Shown here in pieces: positions 1 to 64,000 of a stretch of DNA of 64,000 bases. The stretch spans positions 5,793,356-5,857,355 of the forward strand of contig NZ_CP079946.1 of NCBI RefSeq assembly GCF_019968905.1. The letters are read 5' to 3'. The position numbers were made by a program, and so were the translations under genes. The notes beneath the pieces are model-generated. The model ran no database searches. It was not told the DNA's origin and saw nothing but the letters and a program-made list of their open reading frames with translations. How positions within the stretch are numbered: the stretch's first letter is position 1; the number at the start of each line of letters is the position of its first letter. The DNA is from Corallococcus sp. EGB. Lineage in GTDB: Bacteria; Myxococcota; Myxococcia; Myxococcales; Myxococcaceae.

Positions 1-526
1 GACCGAGGTGCAGGCGCAGCGGGTCGTCCCGGAGACCGCTCCCGAAGCGGCACCGGCGGACGAGAACCGCGAGCGGGTGCTGCTGTGCCGCGCCGGCGCG
101 GAGGGTCGCGTGGCCATCCCGCTGTCGCGCGTCACGCGGCTGGAGGAGCTGCCCGCGTCGGACGTGGAGCGGCTGAGCGGAGGCATGGAGATGGCGCGCT
201 ACCACGGGCAGTTGCTGCCGCTGGTGCGCGTGGCCTCCGTGCTGGAGGCGAGGCCTGGGGCGACGGAACAGCTCGCGCGGAACGTGAAGCTCGCGCTGGA
301 CGACTCGCTCTCCGTCGTCGTCACCACGCACGCGGAGACGCGCGTGGGACTGGTGGTGGACGCCATCCTCGACGTCGCGGAGGTGGAGCTCGCGCTCCAG
401 CGGGAGACCCGCCGTCCGGGCGTGCTGGGGTCCATGGTGGTGCAGTCCCGCGCCACCGAGTTCCTGGACGTCGAGGGCACCGTTCGCGCCGTGCACCCGG
501 AGCTGCTGATGGGCGGTGCGCCATGA
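1..526 (+). CDS. cheA: Chemotaxis histidine kinase CheA, C-terminal fragment (CheW-like regulatory domain); 5' end lies outside window
   Basis: ORF 8..526 reads through the window start; CheW-like domain sequence ([25 protein letters not shown]...); TGA overlaps cheW ATG (ATGA); followed by cheW-mcp-cheB-cheR. Confidence 0.7.
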
Positions 527-1011
527 AGGGCTTCCACCAGCTGTGCTCGTTCCAGGTGGGCGACCAACTGTTCGGCCTGGACATCGAACGCGTGCAGGAG
601 ATCCTGATGCCGCCTCCGCTGACGCGCGTGCCCGGCGCGCCTCCGGAGGTCGCGGGGCTGCTCAACCTGCGTGGGCAGATCGTCCCCGCCATCGACCTGC
701 GGCGCCGGCTGGGCCTGCCCGAGGGCACGTCCCCCGCGGACGCGCCCCACGTCGTCCTGCGCGGCGACGAGGGCGCGGTGAGCTTCCGCGTGGATGCCAT
801 CGGCGACATCCTCCCCTTCGAGCCGTCGGCCCTGGCTCCGCTGCCGGACAACCTGCGCGGGCCCCTGCGCTCGTTGCTGTTGGGCGTCCATGCGCTGCCG
901 GACCGGCTGCTGCTCGTGTTGTCCGCGGACGCGGTGGTGGACGGGCTCTCGCCCGCATCCAGCGCCTCCGCCGCCCCTTCCTTCCCCTTGCGTTCCCAGG
1001 AGTCCCGCTGA
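523..1011 (+). CDS. cheW: Chemotaxis coupling protein CheW
   Basis: [28 protein letters not shown]... typical CheW domain; ATG at 523 in frame of ORF 85..1011; start overlaps upstream stop and stop overlaps downstream ATG (translational coupling). Confidence 0.85.
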
Positions 1012-3074
1012 TGGCACGCTCGACCGCGCCCGCCGTGAAAACCACCCCCTTCCAACGCCTGGGCGGCAAGGCCCCACTGACCGCCGCCGTGCAGAAGCTC
1101 TACGCGCGGGTGCTGGCGGATGCGCTGCTCAAGCCCCTCTTCCGCCGCGCGGACCTCGTCCAGGTGCAGCGCCGGATGGTCGCGTTCCTCACCCAGCTCC
1201 TGGGCGGTCCGGCCCTCTATCGCGGCCGGTCCCCGCGCGATGTGCACGCCGGCATGGAGCTCAAGCCCCATCACTTCGAGCGCGTCGCCGAGCACCTGGC
1301 CGCCGTGCTGGATGAGCTGGACGTGCCCGGCCCTGTCGCTCGAGAGGTGCTCGCGGCCCTGGGCACGATTCAAGGCGACGCCGTGAGCAAGCGCGCCCCG
1401 GCACGTGCCTCGCGGACGCAGGGGCGCCGCGTGGCCGCGACCCCAGTGCCCGCGGCCCGGTCCTCGCGCCGCCGGACGTCCACGCTGCTCGAGGGGGCGC
1501 TGAGCGAGGCGGTGCTGAACGCGGCGAGCGTCAACCTGTTCGTGCTGGACGAAGACCTGGCCATCCTCTTCTCGAACACGGCCTCCTCGGACGCCATCGA
1601 GCGCATCCATCAGGCGTCTGGTTTCAGCGGCGGCGTCGGGGATGCGGGCAGCGATTTCCTCGCCCACTTCGAGCACCAGCTGAGCCTGGAGGACGAGCGG
1701 CTGCGCGACCCCGAGGCGCTTCCGCACGAAGCCCACTTCGCCGTGGGCCCCACCCTGATCAAGGCGCGCATCGACGGCATCAAGGGCCGCGGCGGAGCGC
1801 TCACCGGATACGTGGCGACGTGGACGGACGTCACGGATCAGCAGCGCGCGGACACGGAGATGGCACGCCTCAGGGCCATGCTGGAGAACGCGCCCACCTG
1901 CGTGATGGTGGCCGACCTGGACCTGAAGATCGTCTACCTGAACCCGGCCTCTCGCCGGCTGTTGCAGCGCGTGGAGAAGCACCTGCCCGTCACCGCGGAC
2001 CGGGTGCTGGGCTCCCACATCGACGTCTTCCACCGCGACTCGACGTACCAGCGGAAGCTCCTGTCCAACGACAAGAACCTGCCGGTGCGCGCCAACATCC
2101 CCATCGGCCCGGAGACCGCGGACCTGTTGGTGACGGCGGTGTACGACGGCCAGGGGCGCTACCTGGGCCCCATGGTGACGTGGGAGCTGATCACCGAGAA
2201 GCTCGCCGTGCAGCAGCGCGAGAAGGACCTGGACTCCACCCTGCGCGGCATCTTCCAGGAGGTGACGCAGCACTCGCAGACGCTCGCGGCGGCGTCCCAG
2301 GAGCTGTCCAGCGTCAGCCAGCAGCTGGTGAGCAACGCGCAGGAGACCGCCGCGCAGGCAACCCAGGTGTCCGCCGGCGCGGAGCAGGTCAGCCGCAACG
2401 TGCAGAGCGTCGCGTCCGGCATGGAGGAGGTCAACGCGAACATCCGCGAGGTGGCACGCAACGCGAGCACCGCCGCCAAGGTCGCGGCCTCCGCGGTCAA
2501 GCTGGCGGACTCCACGTCCGCCGTCGTCGGCAAGCTGGGGGCGAGCAGCCAGGACATCGGCAAGGTCATCAAGGTCATCACCTCCATCGCGCAGCAGACC
2601 AACCTGCTCGCGCTCAACGCGACCATCGAGGCAGCCCGCGCGGGCGAGGCGGGCCGGGGCTTCGCGGTGGTGGCCAACGAGGTGAAGGAGCTGGCGCGCG
2701 AGACGGCCCGCGCCACCGAGGACATCGGCCAGAAGATCGGCAGCATCCAGGGCGACACCGAGGAGGTGGTCAACGCCATCCTCGAAATTGGCGCCACCAT
2801 CAGCCGCATCGACGAGCTGCAGACGTCCATCGCCTCCTCCGTGGAGGAGCAGACGGCCACGGCGGGAGAGATCCTCCGCAACGTGGGCGAGGCCGCCAAG
2901 GGCAGCCAGCAGATCTCCGAGAACATGGCCGCCGTGGCGGAGGCCGCGCGGAGCACCACCGAGGGCGCGGGCAGCACGCAGCGCTCCGCGGTGGAGCTGG
3001 CCCACATGGCGCAGTCGCTTCAGCGGCTGGTCGTGCAGGTGGACACGACAGACAAACAGGGACGGACGAAGTAG
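1011..3074 (+). CDS. Soluble methyl-accepting chemotaxis protein: N-terminal truncated (2/2) haemoglobin domain + two PAS domains + MCP signalling domain
   Basis: N-term [33 protein letters not shown]...[38 protein letters not shown] matches trHb signature (F..LGG, FL..GGP..Y.G, H..HF); no TM segments; C-term highly conserved MCP core [35 protein letters not shown]; ATG 1011 overlaps cheW TGA. Confidence 0.85.
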
Positions 3075-3111
3075 CGCGGGCGGAATCAGGGTCCAGGAGC
3101 CACGGCACGTG

Positions 3112-4638
3112 CGAACCGGATTGAAGCGGTGGTGGGAACTGGGCCAGGTGGCCCGCGCCTCCACGCGCCTGCGGCGGGAAGCCCTGCCCCAGGACGCGGA
3201 GCATGTGAGGCGTGAGCTGACCCGGAGGCTGTTGGGCTTGCGCGGCCTGCCGCAGAAGGTGGGGCAGGTGCTCACGCTCGCGGAGCTGGGCGAGGAGGCG
3301 CCGGGGTTCGGCTCGCTCGCGGAGGCGCCCTCCCCGCTCGCGCCGGAGGCCGCGCTGGCGGAGGTGTCCCGCCGGCTGGGCCGTCCGTGGCGGGAGGTCT
3401 TCGCCTCGCTGGACGGCCTGGGCATCGCCGCGTCGTTGGGGCAGGTGCACCGGGGCGTGCTGCACGACGGGCGCGCCGTGGCGGTGAAGCTGCGGCACCC
3501 GGGCATCGCGGAGGCCGTGCGGGATGATCTGCGCGCGCTGGGGCTGCTCGCCGCGCCGCTGGGTGGCTGGCGCGGGAAGTTGGACCTGTCCGCGTACCGC
3601 CACGAAGTCGCCCGGATGCTCCAGGGCGAGCTGGACTACCGCCTCGAGGCCCAGGCCCTGCGGGATGCGGGCACGCGCATGGCGGACGTGCCGGGCGTCG
3701 TCGTCCCCGCGCCCGTGGACGCGCTCACGCGGGAAGACCTGCTGGTGATGACCTGGGTGGACGGTGTGCCGCTCGCGGAGGGCTGGCGCTGGAGCGAGGC
3801 GGACCGCCGCGCGCTGTCCACGACACTGGTGCGCCTGCTCCTCCACGGCTGCTTCACCTGGGGCGCGCTCCATGCGGATCCGCATCCAGGCAACTACCGC
3901 GTGTCCCGGGGACCGGAGGGCCACGTCGTGCTGGGGGTGCTCGACTTCGGCTGCGTGAAGCCATTGCCGCCAGAGGTGGCCGCGGGCCTGGGGCGGTTGA
4001 TCGCGCTCCTCCGTTGCCCTGATTCCCCACCGCGTCCGGAACAGCTGTTGTCCGCGTGGGTGATGCTGGGGTTCACGCCGGAACTGCTGGAGCCCATGGC
4101 GGAGGCGCTGCCCGCCGTCAGCCGCGTGCTGCTGGAGCCATTCCTCCAGGACCGCCCCTTCCACGCGCGAGGCTGGCGGCTGGGAGCGCGGCTCACCGAG
4201 GCGCTGGGGCCGCACCGCTGGAACTTCCGCGCGGCGGGGCCGGCGTCGCTCCTGTACGTCCTGCGCGCGTTCCACGGGCTGGTGCGCCACCTGGACGTGC
4301 TGGACACGCCCATCGCCTGGGGGCCGCTGCTGGACGAGGCCCGCGCGCCGTCACTGCCACCGCCGCCGTCGCACTCCGAGGCGCGGGTGGAGGGCTCCGC
4401 GCGCTACCTGAAGGTCCGCGTGACGGAGGCCGGCAACACCCGCGTCGCGCTGACCTTCCGCGCGGACGTGACGGCGCACCTGGAGGACCTCCTGCCGGAG
4501 GACTTGCCCTCCCGGCTCGCGGCGCGAGGGCTCGATCCGGCAGGCATTGGCGCGGCGGCGGTCGCGGCGGGGCTGCGGCCGTCGGAGTTGTTCCACCTGG
4601 ACGAGGGCGACCGGCATGTCCGGGTCTGGCTCGAGTGA
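3112..4638 (+). CDS. ABC1/UbiB/ADCK-family atypical protein kinase
   Basis: AVKLRHPGIAEAVRDDLRALGL..., LVMTWVDGVPL, HADPHPGNYRV motifs typical of ABC1 atypical kinase domain; start codon uncertain (GTG 3112 / TTG 3124 / GTG 3151). Confidence 0.7.
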   Translation, partial: RTGLKRWWELGQVARASTRLRREALPQDAEHVRRELTRRLLGLRGLPQKVGQVLTLAELGEEAPGFGSLAEAPSPLAPEAALAEVSRRLGRPWREVFASLDGLGIAASLGQVHRGVLHDGRAVAVKLRHPGIAEAVRDDLRALGLLAAPLGGWRGKLDLSAYRHEVARMLQGELDYRLEAQALRDAGTRMADVPGVVVPAPVDALTREDLLVMTWVDGVPLAEGWRWSEADRRALSTTLVRLLLHGCFTWGALHADPHPGNYRVSRGPEGHVVLGVLDFGCVKPLPPEVAAGLGRLIALLRCPDSPPRPEQLLSAWVMLGFTPELLEPMAEALPAVSRVLLEPFLQDRPFHARGWRLGARLTEALGPHRWNFRAAGPASLLYVLRAFHGLVRHLDVLDTPIAWGPLLDEARAPSLPPPPSHSEARVEGSARYLKVRVTEAGNTRVALTFRADVTAHLEDLLPEDLPSRLAARGLDPAGIGAAAVAAGLRPSELFHLDEGDRHVRVWLE

Positions 4639-4660
4639 CACACGGAGAAGGAAGCTACGG

Positions 4661-4996
4661 ATGGTCACCATCGGCATGAACTATGAGGTGCGTGAGGGCA
4701 AGGCGGACGCCTTCGAGCGGAAGTTCGCGCTCGTGCAGGAGGCGATGCGCAAGCTGCCCGAGCACGCGCACACGGAGCTGTTCCGGAGCGTGGGAGCGCC
4801 AGGGCGCTACCTCATCGTCTCGGAATGGCAAAGCCGCGAGGGCTTCGACGCCTTCATCGCGTCCGAGCCCTTCCACCGCGTGACGGACTGGGGGGCGAGC
4901 GCCATCCTCGCGAGCCGGCCGCGCCACGAGGTGTATGGCGAGTCAGCCGCCAGCGCCCCCACGGGCCGCTGTCCGGTCGCGCACGCGGCGCGGTGA
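4661..4996 (+). CDS. Antibiotic-biosynthesis-monooxygenase (ABM) domain protein
   Basis: MVTIGMNYEVREGKADAFERKF...LIVSEWQSREGFDAFIASEPF - ABM/Dabb ferredoxin-like fold signature; ~111 aa. Confidence 0.7.
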   Translation: MVTIGMNYEVREGKADAFERKFALVQEAMRKLPEHAHTELFRSVGAPGRYLIVSEWQSREGFDAFIASEPFHRVTDWGASAILASRPRHEVYGESAASAPTGRCPVAHAAR

Positions 4997-5007
4997 AGCG
5001 GGTGCGC

Positions 5008-6078
5008 ATGAACGCCATCCGGGTCCTGGTGGTGGACGACGCGGCCGTGGTGCGGCGTCAGGTGTCGCTGCTGCTGGGCACGGACCCGGGCCTGGAGGTC
5101 GTCGCCACCGCGCCCAACGGGCGCATCGCGTTGGCGAAGGTGGAGCAGTTCCAGCCGGACGTGGTGCTGCTGGACCTGGAGATGCCGGAGCTGGACGGGC
5201 TGGAGACGCTCAAGCTCCTGCGCCAGCGCGCCCCGGAGCTGCCGGTGGTGATGTTCAGCGCGCTCACTGAACGCGCGGGCGTGCTGACCCTGGAGGCGCT
5301 CGCGCTGGGCGCACGCGACTACGTGACGAAGCCCACGTCCGCGGGCGGGATGAACGTCACCGTGGAGGCCGTGCGGGACGAGCTGGTGCGCAAGCTCAAG
5401 GCGCTCCACGTCCGCACGCCGCCCTGCGCGCCCATCGTCGCTCCAGTGCCTCGCGAATCCCTGCTCCGGCCACGGGCGCCCGCGCGGGTGGAGGTCATCG
5501 TCATCGGGGCTTCGACCGGAGGCCCGGGCGCGCTGGTGCGCGTGGTGTCCGCGCTGCCCGCGGGCCTGCCGGTGCCAGTGCTCATCGTGCAGCACATGCC
5601 GCCCCTCTTCACGCGGCTGCTCGCGGAGCGGTTGCAGGGCGTCACCCCGCTCACCGTGCGCGAGGCGGTGAGCGGCGCGTCCGTGCGGGCGGGCGAGGTG
5701 TGGGTCGCGCCCGGGGACTTCCACTTGGCCGTCTGCCGGGACGCGACGGGCGTGCGGCTCTTCACGCATCAGGGGCCGGCGGAGAACGCGTGCCGTCCGG
5801 CGGTGGACCTGCTCTTCCGCTCCGCGGCGGAGGTGTACGGCGCGGGAGTGCTCGCGGTGGTGCTCACGGGCATGGGCCAGGACGGGCTGCGCGGCTGCCG
5901 GCGGGTGAACGAGGCGGGCGGTCAGGTGGTGGTGCAGGACCAGGCCAGCTGCGTCATCGGCAGCATGCCGGGCGCGGTGGAGCAGGCGGGGCTCGCGGAC
6001 GCGGTGGTGTCGCTGGACGCGCTGGCCCCGGAGCTGGCGCGGCGCGTGGACGCGCGCGGACGGAGGACCGGAGCATGA
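5008..6078 (+). CDS. cheB: Chemotaxis response regulator protein-glutamate methylesterase CheB
   Basis: N-terminal receiver domain (IRVLVVDDAAVVRR...LLDLEMPELDGLETLK) + methylesterase domain (VIVIGASTGGPGAL, GMGQDG); stop overlaps cheR ATG. Confidence 0.9.
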   Translation: MNAIRVLVVDDAAVVRRQVSLLLGTDPGLEVVATAPNGRIALAKVEQFQPDVVLLDLEMPELDGLETLKLLRQRAPELPVVMFSALTERAGVLTLEALALGARDYVTKPTSAGGMNVTVEAVRDELVRKLKALHVRTPPCAPIVAPVPRESLLRPRAPARVEVIVIGASTGGPGALVRVVSALPAGLPVPVLIVQHMPPLFTRLLAERLQGVTPLTVREAVSGASVRAGEVWVAPGDFHLAVCRDATGVRLFTHQGPAENACRPAVDLLFRSAAEVYGAGVLAVVLTGMGQDGLRGCRRVNEAGGQVVVQDQASCVIGSMPGAVEQAGLADAVVSLDALAPELARRVDARGRRTGA

Positions 6079-6971
6079 CGCTTCATCCCGACGACTTCGC
6101 GTACCTGCGGCAGCGCGTGTTGCGCCGCTCCGGGCTCGTGCTGGAGCCCGACACGCACGCCCTGGTGGAGGCGCGCCTCACGCCCCTCCTGCGCGAGGAG
6201 CGGCTGCCGGACCTGCCCGCCCTCGTGTCGCGTTTGCGCTCGCAGCCCGAGGGCAGCCCGCTCCATCAACGCGTGGCGGAGGCGTTGGCCAACCACGAGA
6301 CGGCCTTCTTCCGAGACACCCCTGTCTTCGAGGCCCTGCGCACCACCGCGCTGCCCGCCCTGCTGGCGAAGCGCGTCCGCACGCGGACCCTGCGCATCTG
6401 GTGCGCGGCGTGCGCCTACGGCCAGGAGCCCTACAGCGTGGCCATGACGCTGGCCGAGGCCGGGCTGCTCATCACCGGCTGGACCGTGCGCATCCTCGCC
6501 ACCGACTTCTCCACCCGCGCGCTCGTGCGTGCCTGCGAGGCCCGCTACGACGCGAAGGAGATCCACCGGGGCCTGCCCTCCGAGCTGCGTCAGCGCTACT
6601 TCCGCCCGGAGCGCGACGGGTGGCGGCTGAACGACCAGGTTCGCAAGCCGGTGGAGTTCCGGCCGCTCAACCTGCTGGACGACTTCTCCATGGAAGCGCC
6701 CATGGACCTCATCTTCCTGCGCAACGTGATGATCTACTGGGACGTGCCCACCCGGCGCGCGGTGCTCGCCCGCGTGCGGCGGATGCTCCACCAGGACGGC
6801 TTCCTGGTGCTGGGCGCCGCGGAGGCCTCGCCCCTGGTGGAGGACGGCTTCACGCGGCACCTGCTGGGACAGACGAGCTGGTACCGCCCCGCGCCCGTCC
6901 CGCCCCATGCCGGCGCGGGCGCCCCCGTGAAGGAAGCGCCGCGCCCTCCGCGCTCCGGCGCTACACCTTGA
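6075..6971 (+). CDS. cheR: Chemotaxis protein methyltransferase CheR
   Basis: ETAFFRDTPVFEAL, RIWCAACAYGQEPYSVAM, DLIFLRNVMIYWD - CheR SAM-dependent MTase motifs. Confidence 0.9.
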   Translation: MTLHPDDFAYLRQRVLRRSGLVLEPDTHALVEARLTPLLREERLPDLPALVSRLRSQPEGSPLHQRVAEALANHETAFFRDTPVFEALRTTALPALLAKRVRTRTLRIWCAACAYGQEPYSVAMTLAEAGLLITGWTVRILATDFSTRALVRACEARYDAKEIHRGLPSELRQRYFRPERDGWRLNDQVRKPVEFRPLNLLDDFSMEAPMDLIFLRNVMIYWDVPTRRAVLARVRRMLHQDGFLVLGAAEASPLVEDGFTRHLLGQTSWYRPAPVPPHAGAGAPVKEAPRPPRSGATP

Positions 6972-13279: not shown

Positions 13280-13479
13280 GGATGCGCGGGCGCATCATCC
13301 GGGTCGGATGTCGGGAGGGACCGCCCCTGGGGCGCATGAGCTGAAAACCTGTCCGACAGTCGGACAGGTTCGAGGTTCGCAGGCTCGGCCATCGTGTGGC
13401 ACAAACGTGTTCGACAAGCAGAGACGTTCGAGGGCTTCGAGCCTCACAGCGGTGATCAGTCGCACGGAGCCGAGTGCCG

Positions 13480-14395
13480 CAATGGATGAACCGCCCTCCA
13501 CGTCGCGCTGTGTGACTGCTTCGTCGGCCTCCTGGACGGCCACCTCGAGTGTGCTGCCGGGGCGGGCCGCCAACTTCGAGAGCAGAGCCTTGACCTTGCT
13601 CCAGCACAGCTTGATGGGATTGAGGTCGGGACAGCAGGAACAGGACGTCTACCCCAACCGAGCGAAGCCTCCTTGACGCAGGTCGCGTGGTGCGCTCCCA
13701 GGTTGTCCATCACCAGGTCGCCCTGGCGTAGGTTGGGGATCAGGTAGTCGTTGCCGGACAGCAGAGGAACACGGCGCCCGACGTGCCGCCTTCAACTGTC
13801 ATCAGGGCCTCGACTCCGTCCTGGGTGAGAGCACCAATCATGGTGAGAACCGTGTCTCGGTTTCTGGGGACGTGGCCCACCACGCGCTTCGACAGGGCGC
13901 AGGCATACTCACGCTCCATGCCGATATGGCTGCCGGACTCGTCGATGAAGACGGGTCGGTCCCCCCAACGGCTTCGGTGGCCGTGAGGAACTCGGCGCGC
14001 TTCTGATGGACGCTCGGACGCTGACGTCCGCTTGCGACCAGCCCCTTCTTCGTTCGAGAGTCACCGAAGTCGCACGATCATCCGGCCCAAGGTGGGGCGG
14101 CTCAGCGAGCGGCCAAGCTTCCTGATCACCAGGACGACCGGCACGGCAACCGTCGCGTCTGGATTCGCGTCCACCAGCGCCTTCACCCGAGGTAACTCCT
14201 CGTCAGACACGCGCTTGAGCACGCCCGCCAGGAGGCCGCGGCTGCACATCGCCTGTCTCGCGCTTCAGCCGGAGGACCCGGTTCACCGTGGCCCGGCCTA
14301 CGCGGGACTGCTCCGCCAATTCCTCGTACGCCCTGTGCCGCGCTCCTCGCGAATGCGTCGACGCAAGTCCTCGGAGATCGGCCGGATCATCGCCT
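13480..14395 (-). pseudogene. IS630-family transposase, frameshifted/truncated
   Basis: Minus-strand translation gives MIRPISEDLRRRIREERG... (HTH), ...LVMDNLGAHHATCVKEA..., ...DLNPIKLCWSKVKALLSKLAARPG... in at least three different frames. Confidence 0.6.
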
Positions 14396-14447
14396 GAGCA
14401 GCTAATGCCAACCGGCTCGGCTCAAGAGAGCCCCGCTGTCAGGCGGT

Positions 14448-14830
14448 GCAAACCAGTCCGACACTCCTTCAAGTTCGCGTTCTTGGGTCTCAGCCTGCAA
14501 TGACCAGTCCGACAGTCAGACACGTTCATGCCCCGGGCCCTGGCCGCGCAAACCTGTCCGACTGTCCTACACGTTCGCGGGCTTGGGTCTCAGCCCGCGA
14601 CGACCTGTCCGGCAGTCGGACACGTTCATGCCCCGGGTCCTGGCCGCGCAAACCTGTCTGACTGTCCTACAAATTCGCCGGCTTGGGGTTCAGGCTGCGA
14701 TGACCTGTCCGACTGTCGGACACGTTCCTGGCCTCGGGCCCTTGGCCGCCCAAACCTGTCCGACTGTCCTACAAGTTCGCGGGCCTGGGAGACTCGCGAC
14801 AGGGACTTGTCCGACTGTCGGACAGGTTTC
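14448..14830. repeat. ~100-bp tandem direct repeat (~3.8 copies), each copy carrying GTCCGACWGTC half-palindromes
   Basis: Units ...aaaccWgtccgacWgtcctacaMRttcgcgggcYtggg...gacctgtccgRcagtcRgacacgttcMtgSCc... repeated head-to-tail; last unit ends in the full palindrome. Confidence 0.75.
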
Positions 14831-15115
14831 TGAAGAACGCGCCCGGCGGGCGGCCCTGACCGCCATCCCCCGCGTCCCGCGCAATCATGCCGCTTGGGCC
14901 CACTGCGTCTTGCTTCGGGACGTACGGTTCCACGGAGGCCTTGGAACAGTGCGCCTCGTGAGCGCATCTGTCGCGATCTCATCCTGACGCCCCGCTCATG
15001 CTCTCCATCACCATTCGCTGCTGCGCTCAGCGCGGCTTGCATCCTTGCGAAGAGCGCAACGTCCTGGACTCCGTTGGTGGGCTCCTGGCGGCGTGCTTGA
15101 GGGTAGGATTCTGGC

Positions 15116-25479: not shown

Positions 25480-27024
25480 CTACTTGTTGATGCGCACCAT
25501 GGCCACGTCGTAGTGGCGGTCCGTCACGTAGCCGTTCGCGGCCTTGCCGGGGCGGTACATGTTCCCGGTCTTGTCATCCACGTAGAAGCGGTTGTTCGGG
25601 TTCGTGTCCTTGCCCTTGCTGGCGTTGGTCGTGCCCGGGTCGTGGAACGTGTAGTAGGTGCGGCCCTTCCCGTCGACGCCGCGGCCCGTGATGGTCACGA
25701 AGTGGTCCGTGAGGCCATCCACGTTGTAGTTCGAGTCCTTGTGGCTGACGCCCACGACCACGGGCTTGCCGGCCTCCAGCTGCTGGTCGATGTACTTGCG
25801 GCCCTCGGCGGCCTTCTTCGAATCCACCTTCAGCGCGCCGATGCTGTTCTCGCTCTTGCCCACCTGGATGCGGCGGTCCGGGCCCAGCACCGTCGCGCCC
25901 GAGTCACGCGCCATGGCCGTCGCGGCCTTGAAGCACGCGGTGTCGCTCGCGGTGTAGCCGTGGCCGTTCTCGAACTGGCTGTAGTACGGCACCTTCACGT
26001 GCACCGCCGGACGGTCCTTGGCACCGGCCACCTGCTGCGTGTCCGTGCGGTCCGCCTCGGTGGTGGGCCTGCCGCTGTGCGTGCCCTCCGCGCGGCCCGG
26101 CTTCGAGTCGCCGCTCACCGACGGAGGAACCACGCCCGTGTTGGCGTTGGCCGGCCTCGCCGGGGTGCCCGACTGCTCCTTCTTGAGCATGGCGAGCGCG
26201 TCCTTCACCTCCGACCTGAAGCGGTTCGCCACGCCCTTCTGCACGTCCTTGGAGCTGCCGGAGAAGTGCACCAAGGTGCCGCTGGCGTTGGTGCGGCCGC
26301 GCTCGGCGTAGATGTCCTTGATGAGCTGCTCGTCGCTCACCTTCGAGGGATCGCGGCCGGCCAGCGCCTTCTTGAAGATGTCGTCCGCCTTGCCCGGGCC
26401 GTGCTGCACGGAGGTGGACCAGGCCACGTCCCGCAGCGCCGCGGAGCGCTGGTCCAGGTCGATGCCCGTCGCCTTCTTGATGTTGGCGGCGCCCACGTCG
26501 TAGTGCGTGGCCTTGATGTAGTCGTGCTGCGCCTTGTCGAAGCCCTTCGGGTCCTTCGCCGCCAGCTGCTTCCACCGGGCGGAGAACTCCGCGGTGCCCG
26601 GCTTGCTGCCCGACAGCGCCTTGTAAGAGTCCGGGTTCGTCTTCTTCAGCGAGTTGACGAAGGACTGCGCGGATCCGTTCGCGGAAGCGAACTGGTAGGA
26701 GCCATAGGACACGCCGCCCTTGTCGCCCTTGCCCGTGGACACCGTGCCCGGGCCGCGCGCCTCGTACTTGCGGCTCAGGCCGCCCAGCTCGCCGTGGGCC
26801 GCGCTGGTGGAGGACGTGCTCGAGGCCTGCTTCGTCTGCTGCGCACCCTGCGTGTCGAAACCGTCACGAACCTTGAGGGACTGGCCCGCCTGGATCCTGT
26901 TCGGATCCTTGATGTGGTTCGCCTTGGCCAGCGAGTCGACGGAGGTGTGGTAGCGCTTCGCGAGACCCGAGAGCGTGTCGCCCGAACGGACGCGGATGTT
27001 GGTGTCAGTCATGGAGGATTCCAC
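25480..27024 (-). CDS. LysM-domain protein with central unknown domain and C-terminal C39-like/papain-like cysteine peptidase domain; no signal peptide
   Basis: LysM: [43 protein letters not shown]; C-term [28 protein letters not shown] resembles Peptidase_C39-like (YSQ...C). Confidence 0.65.
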
Positions 27025-27205
27025 TCATGTCAGGCCGCGAACACAGCCGCCGCGGACGTGCTTGGATTGCCCGCATTATCGAAAGGCAATGCGACGGGTT
27101 TCGCATTCTCAGTCACAAGCATGTGAAACCGGCGATTCCAGCCGATTCAGCTTCAGCGAACTGATCCGCCGAGACTGAATAGCGAACTCAAGGGAGTCCA
27201 ATCAG

Positions 27206-28237
27206 ATGTCCATGGTCAATCTGAACTTCAAAGGCATGACGTTGCTGTTTGCCATTTGTGTCACGGCTGCGGTCCCGGACGCCTCGGCCCAGGGGAGCGA
27301 GGGCCTCACGGGGGTCTATTCGAACAAGAGCGGGCGGCTGGCCATCGTCGAGGGAAGCAACGAGACGCTCGTGCACTACTCCGGGTCGTTCCCGCAGGGC
27401 AGCAGCGCGGGCACCTGTGATTGCGCCCTGGTCGTGCAGAAGAAGACAGCCACGAATTGGTCACTTCACCAGGCGGGCGAGGAAGACCGCTGGACGCTAC
27501 GCGTCAATCCCAGGCAACTGACATTGGAGACGGGTTCACCCACTTGTTGCGAAGCGGGCTATTCCGGCCGGGATACCTTCGCGCGCAGCACCGTCAAGCC
27601 GCTGGGCATCTGCAAGGTGAAGGTGTCCAGGGCGGGGTTCCACGCGTCGGACGCGGCCAACACGCCGCGCAAGGCGTTCGTGGTGTCCGGCGATGCGGTG
27701 GAGGCCTATGTCGACCCGGTGGAGCCGGACTTCCTGGCCGCCCGCTTCCAGGGGCCCCAGAAGGCGACGGCGGGGCTGATCAAGCGCGAGGACCTGGACT
27801 GCCCCACGGAAGGAGCCCCCGCGGCTGCCCCGGCCCCGGTGCCCGCGGCCAGGCTCCAGCCCTTCGCGGGGACGTGGGTGGAGCTGACGCGGCAGGGCAA
27901 GGGCTTCGTGGTGCTCAAGCCCTGTTCCGCCGAGACGCGCAGCTTCACCATCAAGCCCGCGACGGGTGAAATGGACGTGCAGTTGGGCCAGGAGGCCACG
28001 ACGTTGAAGGTGACGTCCGTGGAGCCCGGCAAGGGCGCCGGGGCCTGGGTGCTGGGGCTCACGGCCGCGGACGGCAAGCCGGAGGCGCTCCAGTGGAAGA
28101 CGGCCGACGCCGCGAAGGGCACCGTGACCGTGAACAGCCCGGACCTCTTCTCCCAGAGCCACGACTACGTGCGCCAGGAGAAGAAGTCCGCCTTCCCGTC
28201 CAAGCAGGAGACAGGCTGCGACGAATACGAGCGCTAG
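27206..28237 (+). CDS. Secreted hypothetical protein
   Basis: Signal peptide MSMVNLNFKGMTLLFAICVTAAVPDASAQ; paired cysteines; atypically low-GC 5' end. Confidence 0.6.
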   Translation: MSMVNLNFKGMTLLFAICVTAAVPDASAQGSEGLTGVYSNKSGRLAIVEGSNETLVHYSGSFPQGSSAGTCDCALVVQKKTATNWSLHQAGEEDRWTLRVNPRQLTLETGSPTCCEAGYSGRDTFARSTVKPLGICKVKVSRAGFHASDAANTPRKAFVVSGDAVEAYVDPVEPDFLAARFQGPQKATAGLIKREDLDCPTEGAPAAAPAPVPAARLQPFAGTWVELTRQGKGFVVLKPCSAETRSFTIKPATGEMDVQLGQEATTLKVTSVEPGKGAGAWVLGLTAADGKPEALQWKTADAAKGTVTVNSPDLFSQSHDYVRQEKKSAFPSKQETGCDEYER

Positions 28238-56514: not shown

Positions 56515-59220
56515 TCAGTGCGCGTCCGCCCAGCTCTTCCCCGCGCCCACTTCCACCTTGAGCGGCACCTTCAGCTCGGCGACGGAGGCCATGCTCTTCA
56601 CGGCCAGGGCCTTCACGGCCTCCACCTCCGCGTCCGGCGCCTCGAAGAGCAGCTCGTCGTGCACCTGGAGGAGCACGCGCGTCTTCAGCTTCTGCGCCCG
56701 GAGCGCGGCGTCCACGGCCAGCATGGCCTTCTTCATCAGGTCCGCGGCGGTGCCCTGGATGGGCATGTTGATGGCGGCGCGCTCGGCGGCCTGGGCCACG
56801 CCGCGGTTCTTGGAGAGCAGATCCCCCATCAGGCGGCGGCGCCCGTAGAGCGTCTCCACGTAGCCCACCTTGCGCGCCTTCTCCACGGTGTCCTCCAGGT
56901 ACTGGCGGATGCCCGCGTACCGGGTGAAGTACCGCTCGATGACGTCGCGCGCGTTCTCCTGGGAGATGCCCAGGCGCGTGGACAGGCCGTGCGCGGACAG
57001 GCCGTACGCGATGCCGAAGTTCACCGTCTTCGCCACGCGGCGCTGCTCGCGGTCCACGTCCTTGGGGTCCACGCCGAAGATTTCGGCCGCCGTGCGGCTG
57101 TGGATGTCCTCGTCGTTGCGGAAGGCCTCGATGAGCACCGGGTCCTCCGCGATGTGCGCCAGGAGCCGCAGCTCAATCTGCGAGTAGTCCGCGCTCACCA
57201 GCTGGTGCCCCGCGTCCGCCACGAAGGCGCGGCGGATCTCCCGGCCCAGCTCGGTGCGGATGGGGATGTTCTGCAGGTTCGGGTCGGACGAGGACAGCCG
57301 GCCGGTGGCGGTGGCCGCCTGGTGGTACGTGGTGTGGATGCGACCGTCCTTCGCGACCAGCGTGGGCAGCGTGTCCAGGTAGGTGCTCTTGAGCTTGGAC
57401 AGGCCGCGGTACTCGATGAGCGCGCGCGCGAGCACGCTGTTGTGCTCCTCCGCCAGCTTCTCCAGCACCTCCTGGTCCGTGGACGGGCCCGTCTTGCCGC
57501 GCTTGAGGATGGGCAGCTTCTGCTCCTCGTAGAGCACCTGCGCCAGCTGCGGGTTGGAGCCCAGGTTGAAGGCGTGGCCCGCGGCCTGGTGGCACTCGGC
57601 CTCCTTCGCCTTCACCTCCACGTCCACGCGCTCGGACGTGCGCCCCAGCTCCGCCACGTCCAGCTTCACGCCCTCGCGTTCCATGCGCGCGAGCACGGGC
57701 AACAGCGGCAGCTCCAGCGTGCGCGCCAGCTCCGAAAGCCCGCCCAGCTCCAGCTCCTTCCACAGTTCCGGCGCCAGCCTCCGCGCCGCGTCCGCGCGCA
57801 CCGCGTACGCCGCGGCCACCTCCTCCGGTCCGTGGTCCGCCAGCGCGCGGCCCTTCTTGCCCTCCACCGACGCGGGCAGCGCGGGCAGCTCCGAGCGCAG
57901 CCGCTCGCGCGTCAGGTCCGCCAGCGCATGCTCCCGGCGCGACGGGTTGAGCAGGTAGCTCAGGAGCTCCACGTCGTCGTGCGCGCCCTCCAGCGTCAGC
58001 CCCTCGTTGGCCAGCACCAGCGTGAGCGCCTTGAGGTCGTGGCCGCCCTTCTTCACCGCCGCGTCCGCGAGCACGTCCTTCATGGCCGCCGCGAAGGCCG
58101 CCACCGGCACCTGTGTCGCGCCCAGCTGCTGGTGCCGCAGCGGCACGTAGCGCGTGGAGCCGTCCGGCAGCGCCACGCCCAGGCCCACCAGCGGCGCCGC
58201 GAAGGGCATGCCCTCGTAGGCGGGCACCAGGGTGACGGCCCCGGCGGCCTTCGCCGCGTCCGCCAGCGCCTTCACCTCCGCCTCGGTGGTGACAAGCGTG
58301 GTGGTGACCGCGAGCGGCGCCACGTCCGCACGGGCCGGTGCCTCCTCCGCGGGCAGGTCGCGCAGCAGCGCGAAGAACTCCAGCTCCGTGAACAGGTCCC
58401 GGGCGCGCGTGGCGTCCGGAGCGCGGCGCACCAGGTCGTCCAGCTTCACGCCCAGCGGCAGCCCGGTGTTGAAGGTGACCAGCTGCTTGGCGCGCAGCAG
58501 GCTCTCGCGGTGGGCCTCCAGCGCCGCGCGGATCTTCGGCTTCTTCACCTCTTCGACGCGCGAGAGCAGCGTCTCCACGTCGCCGAACTGGTGGAGCAGC
58601 TCCACCGCCGTCTTGTCGCCCACGCCCGGCACCTTGGCGACGTTGTCCACCGCGTCGCCCACCAGAGCGAGGAAGTCGCGCACCTGCTTGGGCAGGATGC
58701 CCATCTTCTCCTGCACGTCCGCAATGGCGATGCGCTTGTTCTTCGCGGGGTCGAAGAGGGTGATGTCCTCGTCGACGATCTGCATGAAGTCCTTGTCGCT
58801 GGTGATGACCAGGACCTGGTACCCCTCCGCCTTCGCCTGCATCGCCAGCGTGCCGATGACGTCGTCCGCCTCCCAGCCCTCCGCGTCTAGCGAGGGCAGG
58901 TTCAGCACGTCCCCCACCTTGCGGATGAGCGGGAACTGGGGCGTCAGGTCCTCCGGCGGCGCCTTGCGGTTCGCCTTGTACGTGGGGTCTATCTTCTGGC
59001 GCTCCACGCGGCCGGACTTGTCGAACGCGAGCGCCACGTGCGTGGGCTTCAGCTCCTGCAGGGCCTTGAGCACCATGCGGGTGAAGCCCAGCACCGCGTT
59101 GGTGGGCACCCCCTTGCTCGTCGTGAGCGGAGGGATGGCGTGGTAGGCGCGGAAGATGAAACCGGAGGCGTCGAAGAGCGCCAGGCGGCGCTCGGGGCGC
59201 GGGGGGCTGGTGTCGGCCAT
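56515..59220 (-). CDS. polA: DNA polymerase I
   Basis: 5'-3' exonuclease (LFDASGFIFRAYHA), 3'-5' exo and pol domains (DYSQIELRLLAHIAED, RRVAKTVNFGIAYG, LLQVHDELLFE). Confidence 0.95.
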   Translation of the reverse strand: MADTSPPRPERRLALFDASGFIFRAYHAIPPLTTSKGVPTNAVLGFTRMVLKALQELKPTHVALAFDKSGRVERQKIDPTYKANRKAPPEDLTPQFPLIRKVGDVLNLPSLDAEGWEADDVIGTLAMQAKAEGYQVLVITSDKDFMQIVDEDITLFDPAKNKRIAIADVQEKMGILPKQVRDFLALVGDAVDNVAKVPGVGDKTAVELLHQFGDVETLLSRVEEVKKPKIRAALEAHRESLLRAKQLVTFNTGLPLGVKLDDLVRRAPDATRARDLFTELEFFALLRDLPAEEAPARADVAPLAVTTTLVTTEAEVKALADAAKAAGAVTLVPAYEGMPFAAPLVGLGVALPDGSTRYVPLRHQQLGATQVPVAAFAAAMKDVLADAAVKKGGHDLKALTLVLANEGLTLEGAHDDVELLSYLLNPSRREHALADLTRERLRSELPALPASVEGKKGRALADHGPEEVAAAYAVRADAARRLAPELWKELELGGLSELARTLELPLLPVLARMEREGVKLDVAELGRTSERVDVEVKAKEAECHQAAGHAFNLGSNPQLAQVLYEEQKLPILKRGKTGPSTDQEVLEKLAEEHNSVLARALIEYRGLSKLKSTYLDTLPTLVAKDGRIHTTYHQAATATGRLSSSDPNLQNIPIRTELGREIRRAFVADAGHQLVSADYSQIELRLLAHIAEDPVLIEAFRNDEDIHSRTAAEIFGVDPKDVDREQRRVAKTVNFGIAYGLSAHGLSTRLGISQENARDVIERYFTRYAGIRQYLEDTVEKARKVGYVETLYGRRRLMGDLLSKNRGVAQAAERAAINMPIQGTAADLMKKAMLAVDAALRAQKLKTRVLLQVHDELLFEAPDAEVEAVKALAVKSMASVAELKVPLKVEVGAGKSWADAH

Positions 59221-61499: not shown

Positions 61500-61506
61500 G
61501 GGCGCG

Positions 61507-63267: not shown

Positions 63268-63420
63268 GGCTCGGGATGCTACCAAGCCCTCCTACGACCT
63301 CAAAGACTCCTGCGACGCTCGCCCGCCTGCTGCCCGGTAGCGGACGGGCCGGCACCCTCCCCCTCTGAAACAGGGGCGGGGCCGGCCCGGACCGGATCCG
63401 ACGTGATGGCGCGAGGGCCG

Positions 63421-64000
63421 TCAGTCGAAGATGTTGAAGTTCACCTCGGAGCGGGCCTGCTTGTAGCGGGTCTTCACGTCCTCGATGATGCTGCGGACCT
63501 TGTCCGAGTCCGGGTTCACGATGCGCGGGGTGACGAAGATCACCAGCTCGCGCTTGGTGGAGTCGAACGCGCGGTTCTTGAACAGCTCGCCCACGATGGG
63601 GATGTGCCCCAGGCCCGGCAGCTTCGCGACGGCCTTCTGCTCGTCGTGGCTGAACACGCCCGACAGCACGATGGTCTCACCGTGGCGCACGGTGACGTTC
63701 GTCTTGACCTTGCGCGTGCGGAAGCCGGGGATGGCGGACGAACCACCGAAGGACACCGACACGGAGGTGTCGATTTCAGAGGCCTCCGCCTCCACCTCCG
63801 TCTGGATGTTGCCGTTGCGGTCCGCGGTGGGGCGGATGTTCAGGATGACGCCGTAGGGCTTGTACTCCACCGTGAACTGCGTGTTGGTGATGAGGGGGAT
63901 GGGCACCTCGCCGCCGGCGAGGAACTCCGCCTTCTCACCGCTCGCGCACACCAGCTTGGGCTGCGCCAGCAGGCGGCCGTAGCCGTCGTTGGCCTGGAAC
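63421..64000 (-). CDS. CpaC/RcpA-type secretin, C-terminal part (5' end beyond window)
   Basis: Secretin C-domain: VLSGVFSHDEQKAVAKLPGLGHIPIVGELFKNRAFDSTKRELVIFVTPRIV. Confidence 0.8.
   Translation of the reverse strand, partial: FQANDGYGRLLAQPKLVCASGEKAEFLAGGEVPIPLITNTQFTVEYKPYGVILNIRPTADRNGNIQTEVEAEASEIDTSVSVSFGGSSAIPGFRTRKVKTNVTVRHGETIVLSGVFSHDEQKAVAKLPGLGHIPIVGELFKNRAFDSTKRELVIFVTPRIVNPDSDKVRSIIEDVKTRYKQARSEVNFNIFD

Follow-up and report, generated by a model that had tools for sequence, protein, structure and literature searches.

Organization of the divergent gene pair

We analyzed a 64-kb stretch of Corallococcus sp. EGB DNA (the window; 64,000 nucleotides) in which two divergently transcribed genes flank a short intergenic region; both ORFs of the initial annotation are genuine and lie where it had placed them. 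The gene encoding the putative effector (25480..27012, minus strand) specifies 510 aa from an ATG at 27012 that is kept across nine Corallococcus species in a DNA alignment, while the mechanical ORF (25480-27024, minus strand) begins at a GTG at 27024 and specifies 514 aa. Residue numbers given here follow the 514-aa ORF, and subtracting 4 gives the numbering of the 510-aa protein WP_223633735.1 of Corallococcus sp. EGB, to which the effector is 100% identical. This protein is publicly annotated only as a 'LysM peptidoglycan-binding domain-containing protein', and a literature search for its accession number and for that of its M. xanthus paralog gave no match. The neighboring gene, a candidate immunity gene (27206..28237, plus strand), encodes 343 aa annotated as a 'hypothetical protein'. 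GC3 is 0.96 for the effector gene and 0.90 for its neighbor.

The shared intergenic region (27013..27205, assigned to neither strand) comprises 193 bp with 56% GC and is 85% identical across the nine Corallococcus species in the DNA alignment. It contains the inverted repeat AATGCGA-N6-TCGCATT at 27088-27107 and others at 27097-27130 and 27145-27180, and it probably holds a control region common to both genes. A promoter and terminator scan of this region returned no match to the σ70 consensus, and scanning the window for Rfam families and tRNAs gave no match either.

Domain architecture of the putative effector

Analysis of the effector sequence revealed three domains, beginning with a LysM domain at residues 11-52 (26869..26994, minus strand; Pfam PF01476, E 1.3e-15). 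This domain starts about 6 residues past the initiator Met, leaving no space for a Sec signal. It is predicted to bind peptidoglycan and may additionally dock the protein onto a secretion spike. N-terminal LysM and PG_binding_1 fusions are found on T6SS toxins, a LysM protein was required for a VgrG-effector interaction, and both LysM, as an N-terminal domain, and PG_binding_1 have been linked in other systems to the loading of toxins onto VgrG (PMC10673891).

The middle domain (residues 80-272; 26209..26787, minus strand), previously described as unknown, proved to be a VgrG3-like C-terminal domain with a lysozyme/chitosanase fold; the GVSYGSYQF motif reported within it is present as described. 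The match to the Pfam model T6SS_VgrG3-like_C (PF21277) reached 181.2 bits against a cut-off of 27 (E 2.6e-53) and spanned model positions 1-182 of 183, and a search of PDB sequences matched the solved C-terminal domain of VgrG3 (4noo_A/4nso_A, E 3e-28). In the alignment with 4noo_A, Glu88 (KYE) and Asp101 (GKGD) correspond to the Glu and Asp of SEKYE...NGD in Vibrio cholerae VgrG3, which we take to be the acidic catalytic pair numbered Glu827/Asp842, and both residues are conserved in all orthologs of the VgrG3C type. The middle domain is thus predicted to be a glycan-strand hydrolase acting through Glu88/Asp101, VgrG3 itself being lysozyme-like and of the chitosanase type (PMC12663445). Pfam detected no VgrG, gp5 or gp27 region in the effector. 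Fusion to a VgrG spike marks VgrG3 itself rather than the Pfam family PF21277.

Combinations of LysM with a VgrG3C domain also occur in other settings. Homologs of 292 aa are encoded beside alanine racemase, in a conserved housekeeping position, on two soil metagenome contigs, and a Caulobacter homolog is encoded some 3 kb away from a T3SS cluster of the injectisome type, indicating that the domain pair is not specific to T6SS.

A low-complexity linker rich in Pro, Thr and Gly (residues 273-340; 26005..26208, minus strand), which differs in length and sequence between aligned orthologs, leads to a C-terminal domain predicted to be a papain-fold cysteine peptidase or amidase (residues 341-514; 25483..26004, minus strand). 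Its VPYYSQ motif starts at residue 345, and the Cys of TASDTACF is Cys364 (codon 25933-25935), the sole cysteine of the effector. With phmmer, residues 341-484 matched 9jdd_A (E 2.5e-20) and the domain also matched 9jg8_C (E 2.4e-19); when an AF2 model of the domain (pLDDT 74.9) was searched with Foldseek, 9jdd_A was again the best match (E 2.7e-11, TM 0.66), followed by papain-like proteases. The Foldseek description gives the title of the 9jdd entry as 'type VI secretion system effector-immunity complex BtaeB CTD-BtaiB'. These sequence and model comparisons identify the domain as a homolog of the C-terminal toxic domain of BtaeB, a T6SS effector of Bacteroides fragilis.

In the alignment, Cys364 and His441 occupy the positions of the 9jdd_A Cys and His, and in the model a helix (29-40) begins at the Cys and a strand (107-116) at the His. 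The Cys/His dyad, on which the initial annotation had made its lytic reading depend, is present and, together with His461-Asp462, invariant in 20/20 relatives, and among 131 representatives of the wider family the Cys is conserved in more than 90% and the His in all. The predicted catalytic triad is Cys364/His441/Asp462. The earlier label 'C39-like' holds at the level of a papain-like fold and clan but not as Pfam membership: no Pfam model scored above threshold on the domain, the sole match being BtrH_N (12.5-14.3 bits, cut-off 29.7), and Peptidase_C39_2 (PF13529) gave no Pfam match on the effector even at E up to 10. Faint precomputed PF13529 matches occur on a few orthologs. A C39 bacteriocin-processing peptidase was considered and rejected, as neither an ABC transporter nor a Pfam C39 match was found. 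Nearly all partner domains found in the 131 family representatives are wall-binding or wall-cleaving, including PG_binding_1 (29/131), LysM (11/131), PG_binding_3, SH3_3, Amidase_2, VanY, Peptidase_M15_4 and Hydrolase_2.

A signal-less layout that joins wall-binding to catalytic domains is typical of endolysins, and PHROG searches matched the VgrG3C-like region to two large phage families (phrog_34863, 2.7e-42; phrog_26249, 7.2e-41) and, weakly, the C-terminal domain to the endolysin family phrog_10051 (~1e-4). The middle domain of the Myxococcus paralogs described below is also seen in a phage-like region. Nevertheless, it is highly improbable that the effector is an endolysin of phage or tailocin origin, or a lysin freed by lysis or in outer-membrane vesicles, that escapes through a holin or lysis of the producer. 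LysM excepted, the families matched in PHROG have no known function; genes for phage, holin or tail proteins were not found near the pair, in the window or at related loci; and an endolysin would have no need of a periplasmic immunity partner. No trace of the effector, nor any LysM entry, was found in three supplementary files of the EGB outer-membrane-vesicle paper, which is weak evidence against such a release. A prophage endolysin was rejected for its missing phage context.

Absence of a signal peptide throughout the family

N-termini were compared with a crude hydropathy proxy, which is not a signal-peptide predictor. By this measure a hydrophobic N-terminus was found in 0/20 effector orthologs and paralogs, in 1/115 top homologs (a borderline case lying within a PG_binding_1 domain) and in 2/124 representatives of the C-terminal domain family. 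These counts bear out the previous observation that the effector has no Sec signal and extend this trait to the family, lending support to the non-classical export that had been proposed.

The neighboring gene encodes a candidate periplasmic immunity protein

The neighbor begins with a signal peptide (residues 1-28; 27206-27289, plus strand) ending in ASA/QG, followed by three all-beta domains at about residues 33-127, 131-196 and 212-340. All eight cysteines of the mature protein are invariant, in agreement with its first description as a Cys-containing secreted protein. The best structural match to its model is the immunity protein BtaiB, a fold-level similarity with 13% identity. The neighbor had no match in Pfam, NCBIfam or PHROG, a profile search against PDB sequences yielded nothing beyond a match at chance level, and hhalign detected no relation between domains 1 and 3. 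There was likewise no sequence match to TsiV3, which was also absent among the structural matches listed. The initial annotation went no further than the label 'secreted unknown protein'; the protein is a conserved partner of the effector with a BtaiB-like model. Given this conserved partnership and BtaiB as the best structural match, the neighbor is most likely the periplasmic immunity gene of the effector.

The 5' end of this gene had also been singled out as atypically AT-rich. This feature is real but modest, with 45% GC in the first 60 nt and 57.8% in the first 90 nt, compared to 69.1 ± 5.5% in the first 90 nt of 33 other window genes, and is as expected for a signal-peptide or translation-start region.

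Conservation and genomic context of the pair

The effector and its neighbor are adjacent and divergent in 20 of 21 distinct loci from Corallococcus, Cystobacter, Archangium, Pyxidicoccus and Myxococcus sp., and the gene families flanking the pair vary between loci. The sole VgrG3C-type copy that lacks the neighbor (locus L021) has a lipoprotein ORF beginning 6 bp downstream. Within Corallococcus the pair is chromosomal and syntenic, with no obvious mobile element; in the window it lies among genes for an aromatic amino-acid hydroxylase, a LysR regulator, an SDR, an HmuY-like lipoprotein and an MVP homolog. In Corallococcus sp. RDP092CA, a single 2.4-kb deletion removed the 5' parts of both genes, indicating that the pair is dispensable.

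This synteny, together with the strongly conserved, palindrome-bearing intergenic region, which suggests tight regulation, and the homologs next to alanine racemase, would suit an endogenous function in wall remodeling, with the effector as an autolysin of developmental lysis, sporulation or germination and the neighbor as its periplasmic regulator or inhibitor. We consider such a function quite unlikely, because a housekeeping periplasmic hydrolase should be equipped with a Sec or Tat signal, and essentially the whole family lacks one. The dispensability of the pair in RDP092CA also argues against it, as do the closest characterized relatives of both catalytic domains, which are interbacterial toxins, and the immunity protein that best matches the neighbor model.

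Myxococcus paralogs have LysM and Cys-peptidase ends like those of the effector but a different middle domain, and they lack a neighbor-type gene. When each neighbor domain was compared by hhalign to the 143 ORFs flanking the neighbor-less loci, nothing exceeded 40% probability, and no alternative immunity gene was found for the paralogs among these ORFs. A protein search with the paralog middle domain gave nine matches; two of its contexts, one phage-like and one following a stand-alone LysM gene, have no bearing on the secretion route.

Every three-domain ortholog found comes from Cystobacterineae, the only suborder in which Kil and T3SS* co-occur (PMC12428579). Prey lysis with local degradation of peptidoglycan depends on T3SS*, for which no effector is known (PMC8460266, PMC12075869, PMC12428579). 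This raises the possibility, which we regard as unlikely, that the pair serves predation, with T3SS* exporting the signal-less hydrolase and the Kil (Tad-like) contact site delivering it. In this scheme the effector would open a local hole in prey peptidoglycan before lysis while the neighbor guards the predator wall from leakage. It is equally doubtful that the effector and the Myxococcus paralogs are among the lytic effectors long sought for contact-dependent predation, passing from the needle-less T3SS* to the Kil pilus with the neighbor shielding the predator.

The Caulobacter homolog near a T3SS cluster is in keeping with export of this kind, and the window itself contains kilC/kilF/kilD-like genes at 59280-64000, about 32 kb from the pair. 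However, unrelated genes fill these 32 kb, and the Cystobacter and Archangium pairs have different surroundings, which lack a secretin or ATPase up to a distance of 10 kb. Furthermore, no distinguishing feature is known for substrates of T3SS* or Kil, a LysM domain starting at residue 7-11 leaves almost no room for an unstructured N-terminal export signal, and a dedicated immunity protein suits a kin-directed weapon better than a prey-triggered one. Linkage to kil was rejected as evidence, given the 32-kb distance and its absence for pairs in other genera.

Comparison with known effector/immunity systems

Comparison to VgrG3/TsiV3 of V. cholerae (4NOO, 4NSO, PF21277) showed that the middle domain is a clear sequence homolog in which the Glu and Asp are kept. 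VgrG3 lacks a signal, hydrolyzes peptidoglycan glycan strands in the periplasm of the target cell and is neutralized by a periplasmic immunity protein, an arrangement that the Corallococcus pair appears to share. In contrast to VgrG3, where the domain is fused to a VgrG spike, the Corallococcus domain is free-standing between LysM and a second hydrolase with no vgrG near, and its neighbor has no sequence match to TsiV3.

The C-terminal domain resembles that of BtaeB (PDB 9JDD, 9JG8/9JG9), a 617-aa B. fragilis protein whose long N-terminal part joins a complex of VgrG and the adaptor BtapC (PMC13402684). The Corallococcus effector has LysM and a lysozyme-like domain in place of this N-terminal part. 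BtaiB has 125 aa, whereas the Corallococcus neighbor has 343 aa in three domains, and the genes here are divergent. As in BtaeB/BtaiB, the modeled candidate immunity protein has the BtaiB fold, is exported and is encoded beside the effector.

The closest parallel among myxobacteria is TsxE/TsxI of M. xanthus (MXAN_5572/5571), whose T6SS effector TsxE likewise has a LysM domain, no signal peptide and a predicted cell-wall target, and whose immunity protein TsxI, like the Corallococcus neighbor, belongs to no recognizable family (PMC5801462). Neither pair is strain-specific; each is conserved among related species. Unlike the Corallococcus effector, TsxE carries an amidohydrolase-2 domain, is encoded directly downstream of vgrG2 and has a genetically proven T6SS dependence (PMC5801462); the Corallococcus pair has other catalytic domains and no linked vgrG, and is known here from sequence and models. 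A combination of two peptidoglycan-cleaving activities with different bond specificity in one effector is reported for bifunctional cell-wall T6SS effectors such as Acinetobacter baumannii Tse4 (bioRxiv 10.1101/2021.03.04.433973). The domain families of Tse4 differ from those of the Corallococcus effector.

A proposed orphan effector/immunity module and its possible delivery

On balance, we favor the view that the divergent pair is an orphan antibacterial effector/immunity module in which a bifunctional peptidoglycan hydrolase is delivered without Sec. This view builds on the domain homologies, conserved catalytic residues, missing signal peptides, conserved pairing and BtaiB fold match, which were established directly. 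The pair is a previously uncharacterized yet fairly ordinary bacterial toxin/immunity type, and orphan effectors are known in M. xanthus.

As to enzymatic activity, toxicity, neutralization and delivery, we infer the following course of events. The effector, which has no Sec signal, would be synthesized in the cytoplasm and then be delivered to a neighboring cell, in whose periplasm the VgrG3-type domain would cut glycan strands (Glu88/Asp101) and the BtaeB-type domain would cut peptide stems or the amide link (Cys364/His441/Asp462), so that the sacculus is attacked at two kinds of bond and the cell lyses. The neighbor protein, Sec-exported, disulfide-bonded and periplasmic, would bind and block the effector through its BtaiB-like beta-barrel, and the producer and its kin would thereby be shielded.

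The earlier proposal of a cell-wall-targeting lytic effector gains support from both enzymatic domains, which are homologous to T6SS toxic domains solved with immunity proteins, and these homologies, together with the Cys/His dyad, strengthen its candidacy as an antibacterial or predation effector. A divergent layout, in place of the usual operon of effector followed by immunity gene, counts against the effector/immunity reading, as does the occurrence of the pair as a syntenic unit in Corallococcus that is neither polymorphic nor on a mobile element. The Myxococcus paralogs, with their shared C-terminal domain but no neighbor-type gene, count against it too.

We tentatively place T6SS as the most likely delivery route, in view of the homologies and the published work cited above. 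The pair has several traits of T6SS cargo, namely no Sec signal, toxic domains predicted to act in the periplasm and an adjacent candidate gene for periplasmic immunity. No T6SS genes (vgrG, hcp, PAAR or adaptor) were found among the scanned ORFs of the 64-kb window, and for three related loci, from Cystobacter, Archangium and M. xanthus, precomputed Pfam data showed none up to 10 kb away. T6SS trafficking domains (PAAR, Rhs, MIX, FIX and DUF2345) were also absent, by Pfam, from the effector and the 131 family representatives; of domains linked to VgrG loading, LysM and PG_binding_1 alone occur. If T6SS does deliver the effector, the pair would serve antagonism among kin or siblings, as TsxE/TsxI does in M. 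xanthus.

Possible implications for myxobacterial antagonism

These results turn two generically named genes into a specific toxin/antidote hypothesis for a pair conserved across predatory Cystobacterineae. Delivery by T6SS would make the pair the second wall-targeting entry on a very short list of effector-immunity pairs for myxobacterial kin policing, and would provide an instance of a LysM domain followed by two fused hydrolase domains of T6SS type; delivery by Kil/T3SS* would instead make the effector the first of a machinery whose cargo is unknown. The three-domain immunity protein raises the question of whether one antidote acts against both catalytic domains. Finally, because Corallococcus sp. 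EGB is a biocontrol agent, a bifunctional lysin with its matching inhibitor would be of practical interest.

Genes, starts and domains of the effector

The minus-strand ORF at 25480-27024 encodes a 514-aa protein with 100% identity to WP_223633735.1 of Corallococcus sp. EGB (the effector), and the divergent plus-strand ORF at 27206-28237 encodes a 343-aa protein (the neighbour). GC3 was 0.96 in the effector ORF, the level of a real gene, and 0.90 in the neighbour ORF, in a window with a GC content of ~70%, confirming as real genes the signal-less three-domain ORF and divergent secreted ORF recorded in the initial annotation. When the DNA lying upstream of both genes was aligned across nine Corallococcus species, the conserved effector start proved to be the ATG at 27012, giving a 510-aa protein. 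The neighbour starts at a conserved ATG at 27206, with an AGGAGG-like site in front of it; effector residue numbers used here are those of the 514-aa ORF.

The effector begins with a Pfam LysM domain (residues 11-52) that starts about six residues past the Met. The middle domain, listed as unknown in the initial annotation, is a VgrG3-type lysozyme domain: residues 80-272 score 181 bits along the full length of the PF21277 model ('T6SS spike protein VgrG3-like, C-terminal') and match the solved VgrG3 C-terminal domain (4NOO, 4NSO) with an E value of 3e-28. Glu88 (KYE) and Asp101 (GKGD) align with the Glu and Asp of VgrG3 SEKYE...NGD, a catalytic pair whose usual residue numbers we take to be Glu827 and Asp842. 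VgrG3 reportedly has lysozyme-like chitosanase catalytic residues and cleaves the glycan chains of peptidoglycan (PMC12663445).

A Pro/Thr-rich linker, differing in length and sequence between orthologues, leads to the C-terminal domain (residues 341-514), which matched PDB 9JDD chain A (E 2.5e-20) and had no Pfam match at threshold; BtrH_N, the sole match, scored 12.5-14.3 bits where 29.7 are required. When the domain was modelled with AlphaFold (pLDDT 74.9; residues 1-26 of the model disordered), 9JDD_A was also the sole strong Foldseek match (E 2.7e-11), followed by papain-like proteases (UfSP, cathepsins, staphopain) with scores at chance level. Foldseek describes 9JDD as 'type VI secretion system effector-immunity complex BtaeB CTD-BtaiB' of Bacteroides fragilis. 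BtaeB (Bfe7) and the adaptor BtapC are found in one secretion complex, and T6SS function was abolished when BtaeB was deleted, either singly or together with bfe5 (PMC13402684).

In the model, a helix begins at Cys364, the single cysteine of the whole effector, and a strand begins at His441; both residues, together with His461-Asp462, were invariant in an alignment of 20 relatives. Among 131 representatives of the wider C-terminal domain family, the His was invariant and the Cys was kept in more than 90%. The Cys/His dyad on which the proposed lytic activity depends is therefore present. Conserved catalytic residues in both hydrolase domains of a signal-less protein support, at the level of sequence, the original reading of a wall-targeting lytic effector.

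An inherited lack of a Sec signal and shuffling of hydrolase modules

With the C-terminal domain as query, exhaustive HMMER searching at E <= 0.001 yielded 1,152 cluster representatives. Partner domains in 131 of the best representatives were almost all peptidoglycan-binding or -cleaving, including PG_binding_1 (in 29), LysM (in 11), PG_binding_3, SH3_3, Amidase_2, VanY, Peptidase_M15_4 and Hydrolase_2; PAAR, VgrG, Rhs and MIX domains were found in none of the 131. In a simple hydropathy test for a hydrophobic N-terminus, positives numbered 0 of 20 effector orthologues and paralogues, 2 of 124 family representatives and 1 of 115 top whole-effector homologues (a borderline false positive), compared with 11 of 13 neighbour proteins. 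The absence of a Sec signal, as first noted for the effector, is thus a trait that these wall hydrolases inherit, rather than the result of a misassigned start codon. Five signal-less family members (P0237, P0241, P0250, P0258 and P0266) share an N-terminal module of ~90 aa that has an EF-hand-like loop (AGxDGxIxGxEFxxLF), is not recognised by Pfam and may serve in trafficking or regulation.

A Myxococcus paralogue with ~35% identity to the effector (ABF89521.1/Q1DEU1 in DK1622; M. xanthus locus L002:10001-11623 and loci L024-L029, L032 and L037) has the same LysM and Cys-peptidase C-terminal domains and a different middle domain without a Pfam match. Its surroundings are conserved but other than those of the effector, with Porin_O_P upstream and an ATP-grasp-like gene downstream, and the BtaiB-like neighbour gene is absent from them. 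Outside the paralogue, this middle domain stands by itself beside Peptidase_M23 in a phage-like region (locus L046) and behind a stand-alone LysM gene (locus L045), and in other myxobacterial proteins the VgrG3 C-terminal-type (VgrG3C) domain is joined to CHAP, Peptidase_C39_2, PG_binding_1 or DUF4214. The swapped middle domain and the varied VgrG3C partners indicate that hydrolase modules are shuffled, as in polymorphic toxins and lysins.

A probable immunity protein encoded by the divergent gene

The neighbour had no match in Pfam, NCBIfam or PHROG, and its only 16 relatives are all myxobacterial and annotated 'hypothetical'. In their alignment, the signal peptide ends in ASA/QG, eight cysteines are invariant and an Ala/Pro linker connects two blocks. 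These features point to a disulfide-bonded protein located in the periplasm or outside the cell.

A genome scan gave 37 loci, including 21 distinct loci with a VgrG3C-type orthologue (a duplicate of one Cystobacter locus being counted once). The neighbour lies directly upstream on the opposite strand in 20 of the 21, although the genes on either side belong to different families in Corallococcus, Cystobacter, Archangium and Pyxidicoccus/Myxococcus sp.; the Cystobacter fuscus and EGB neighbours share 53% identity. The exception, a second copy in Myxococcus sp. RHSTA-1-4 (L021), lacks the neighbour and has a lipoprotein ORF beginning 6 bp past the effector stop. Corallococcus sp. RDP092CA (L038:7889-8195) is a natural double knock-out: one deletion of ~2.4 kb, equivalent to window positions 25677-28112 and flanked by sequence with 90-94% identity to the window, removed the intergenic region and the 5' parts of both genes, leaving only their 3' ends. 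The initial description of the neighbour as secreted holds, given its signal peptide, and its function can be refined to that of a probable immunity protein of the effector.

The divergent intergenic region (27013-27205), 85% identical over nine Corallococcus species, contains an inverted repeat AATGCGA-N6-TCGCATT (27088-27107) and two others with 13-nt (27097-27130) and 14-nt (27145-27180) arms. A σ70 consensus was not found in this region, where some regulator probably acts on an operator or promoter common to both genes.

Convergent with the neighbour gene, with a 4 bp overlap, is a minus-strand gene (28234-29862) for a 542-aa protein with a HEFFH metalloprotease-like motif, a Cys/Gly-rich C-terminal tail and no Pfam match, followed by an HmuY-like lipoprotein gene (29787-30776). 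Three genes from the pair, the minus-strand ORF at 30863-33388 encodes an 841-aa bacterial homologue of the eukaryotic major vault protein, with Vault repeats 1-4 and the MVP shoulder domain. Elsewhere in the window are a chemosensory cluster (8-6971) encoding CheW, a globin-coupled PAS methyl-accepting protein (516-3074), an ABC1 kinase, CheB and CheR, and a ~1.8 kb region of lower GC (~0.66; 13280-15115) without an ORF of coding GC3 signature; Rfam and tRNA scans gave no match there or in the rest of the window.

Delivery of the effector

In our analysis, the T6SS is the best-supported delivery route because the closest characterised relatives of both catalytic domains and of the neighbour fold are T6SS effector-immunity complexes, because N-terminal LysM and PG_binding_1 domains recur on vgrG-locus toxins, mainly lysozyme-like, NlpD and NlpC/P60 (PMC10673891), because LysM is present in the M. 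xanthus T6SS effector TsxE (PMC5801462), and because in M. xanthus the loci for effector-immunity pairs lie dispersed, apart from the single T6SS cluster (PMC10433427). One VgrG-effector interaction needed a LysM protein (PMC10673891). Counting against this route, T6SS genes were found neither among the scanned ORFs of the 64-kb window nor within 10 kb of three related loci, the effector has no T6SS trafficking domain, and the gene order is divergent.

Nor is the LysM-VgrG3C module itself T6SS-specific, because it occurs in the vicinity of a Caulobacter T3SS and in synteny with alanine racemase, and because the VgrG3C-like region of the effector also matches large phage proteins. In Caulobacter sp., a signal-less LysM-LysM-VgrG3C protein (L041:9241-10326 and L042:7555-8640) is encoded ~3 kb from an injectisome-type T3SS cluster (FliO, Bac_export_2, SLT, FHIPEP, secretin, Y4YQ_C). 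On two independent soil metagenome contigs, 292-294-aa LysM-VgrG3C proteins without a signal peptide (L043:6344-7228 and L044:5048-5926) share one housekeeping position, between alanine racemase upstream and a dienelactone-hydrolase-like gene downstream, with dnaB, radA and thyA close by. The Caulobacter context suggests that some family members serve a T3SS instead of a T6SS. It is very improbable that the effector is an endolysin, or a lysin freed by lysis or in vesicles, and we consider it unlikely to be a housekeeping or developmental autolysin with the neighbour as periplasmic inhibitor; both readings fit the evidence more poorly.

Delivery by the myxobacterial Kil machine or needle-less T3SS (T3SS*) is a rather unlikely alternative, because the kil-like genes are 32 kb from the pair with unrelated genes between, the pair has other surroundings in other genera, and no known feature marks Kil or T3SS* substrates. 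In its favour, T3SS*, whose cargo is unknown, is required for prey lysis with local peptidoglycan degradation (PMC8460266, PMC12075869, PMC12428579), and Kil and T3SS* co-occur only in Cystobacterineae (PMC12428579), the group with all three-domain effector orthologues. Moreover, the window ends (59280-64000) with minus-strand orthologues of M. xanthus Kil cluster I, a Tad-like prey-killing machine (PMC8460266): a kilD-like double-FHA cytoplasmic protein (59280-61499), a kilF-like FHA-fused T2SSE ATPase (61507-63285) and a kilC-like secretin C-terminus running past the window edge (63421->64000). Directly beside them is polA (56515-59220).

In sum, the effector combines a wall anchor with two hydrolase domains whose catalytic residues are intact, lacks a signal peptide and has an exported BtaiB-like protein as its partner. 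The effector would be delivered to an adjacent cell's periplasm and would cut glycan strands and peptide stems there, and cells without the partner protein would be lysed. The pair appears to be a new architecture of a well-known system, the peptidoglycan-hydrolase effector with periplasmic immunity; if the effector were a cargo of Kil or T3SS*, its interest would rise sharply.
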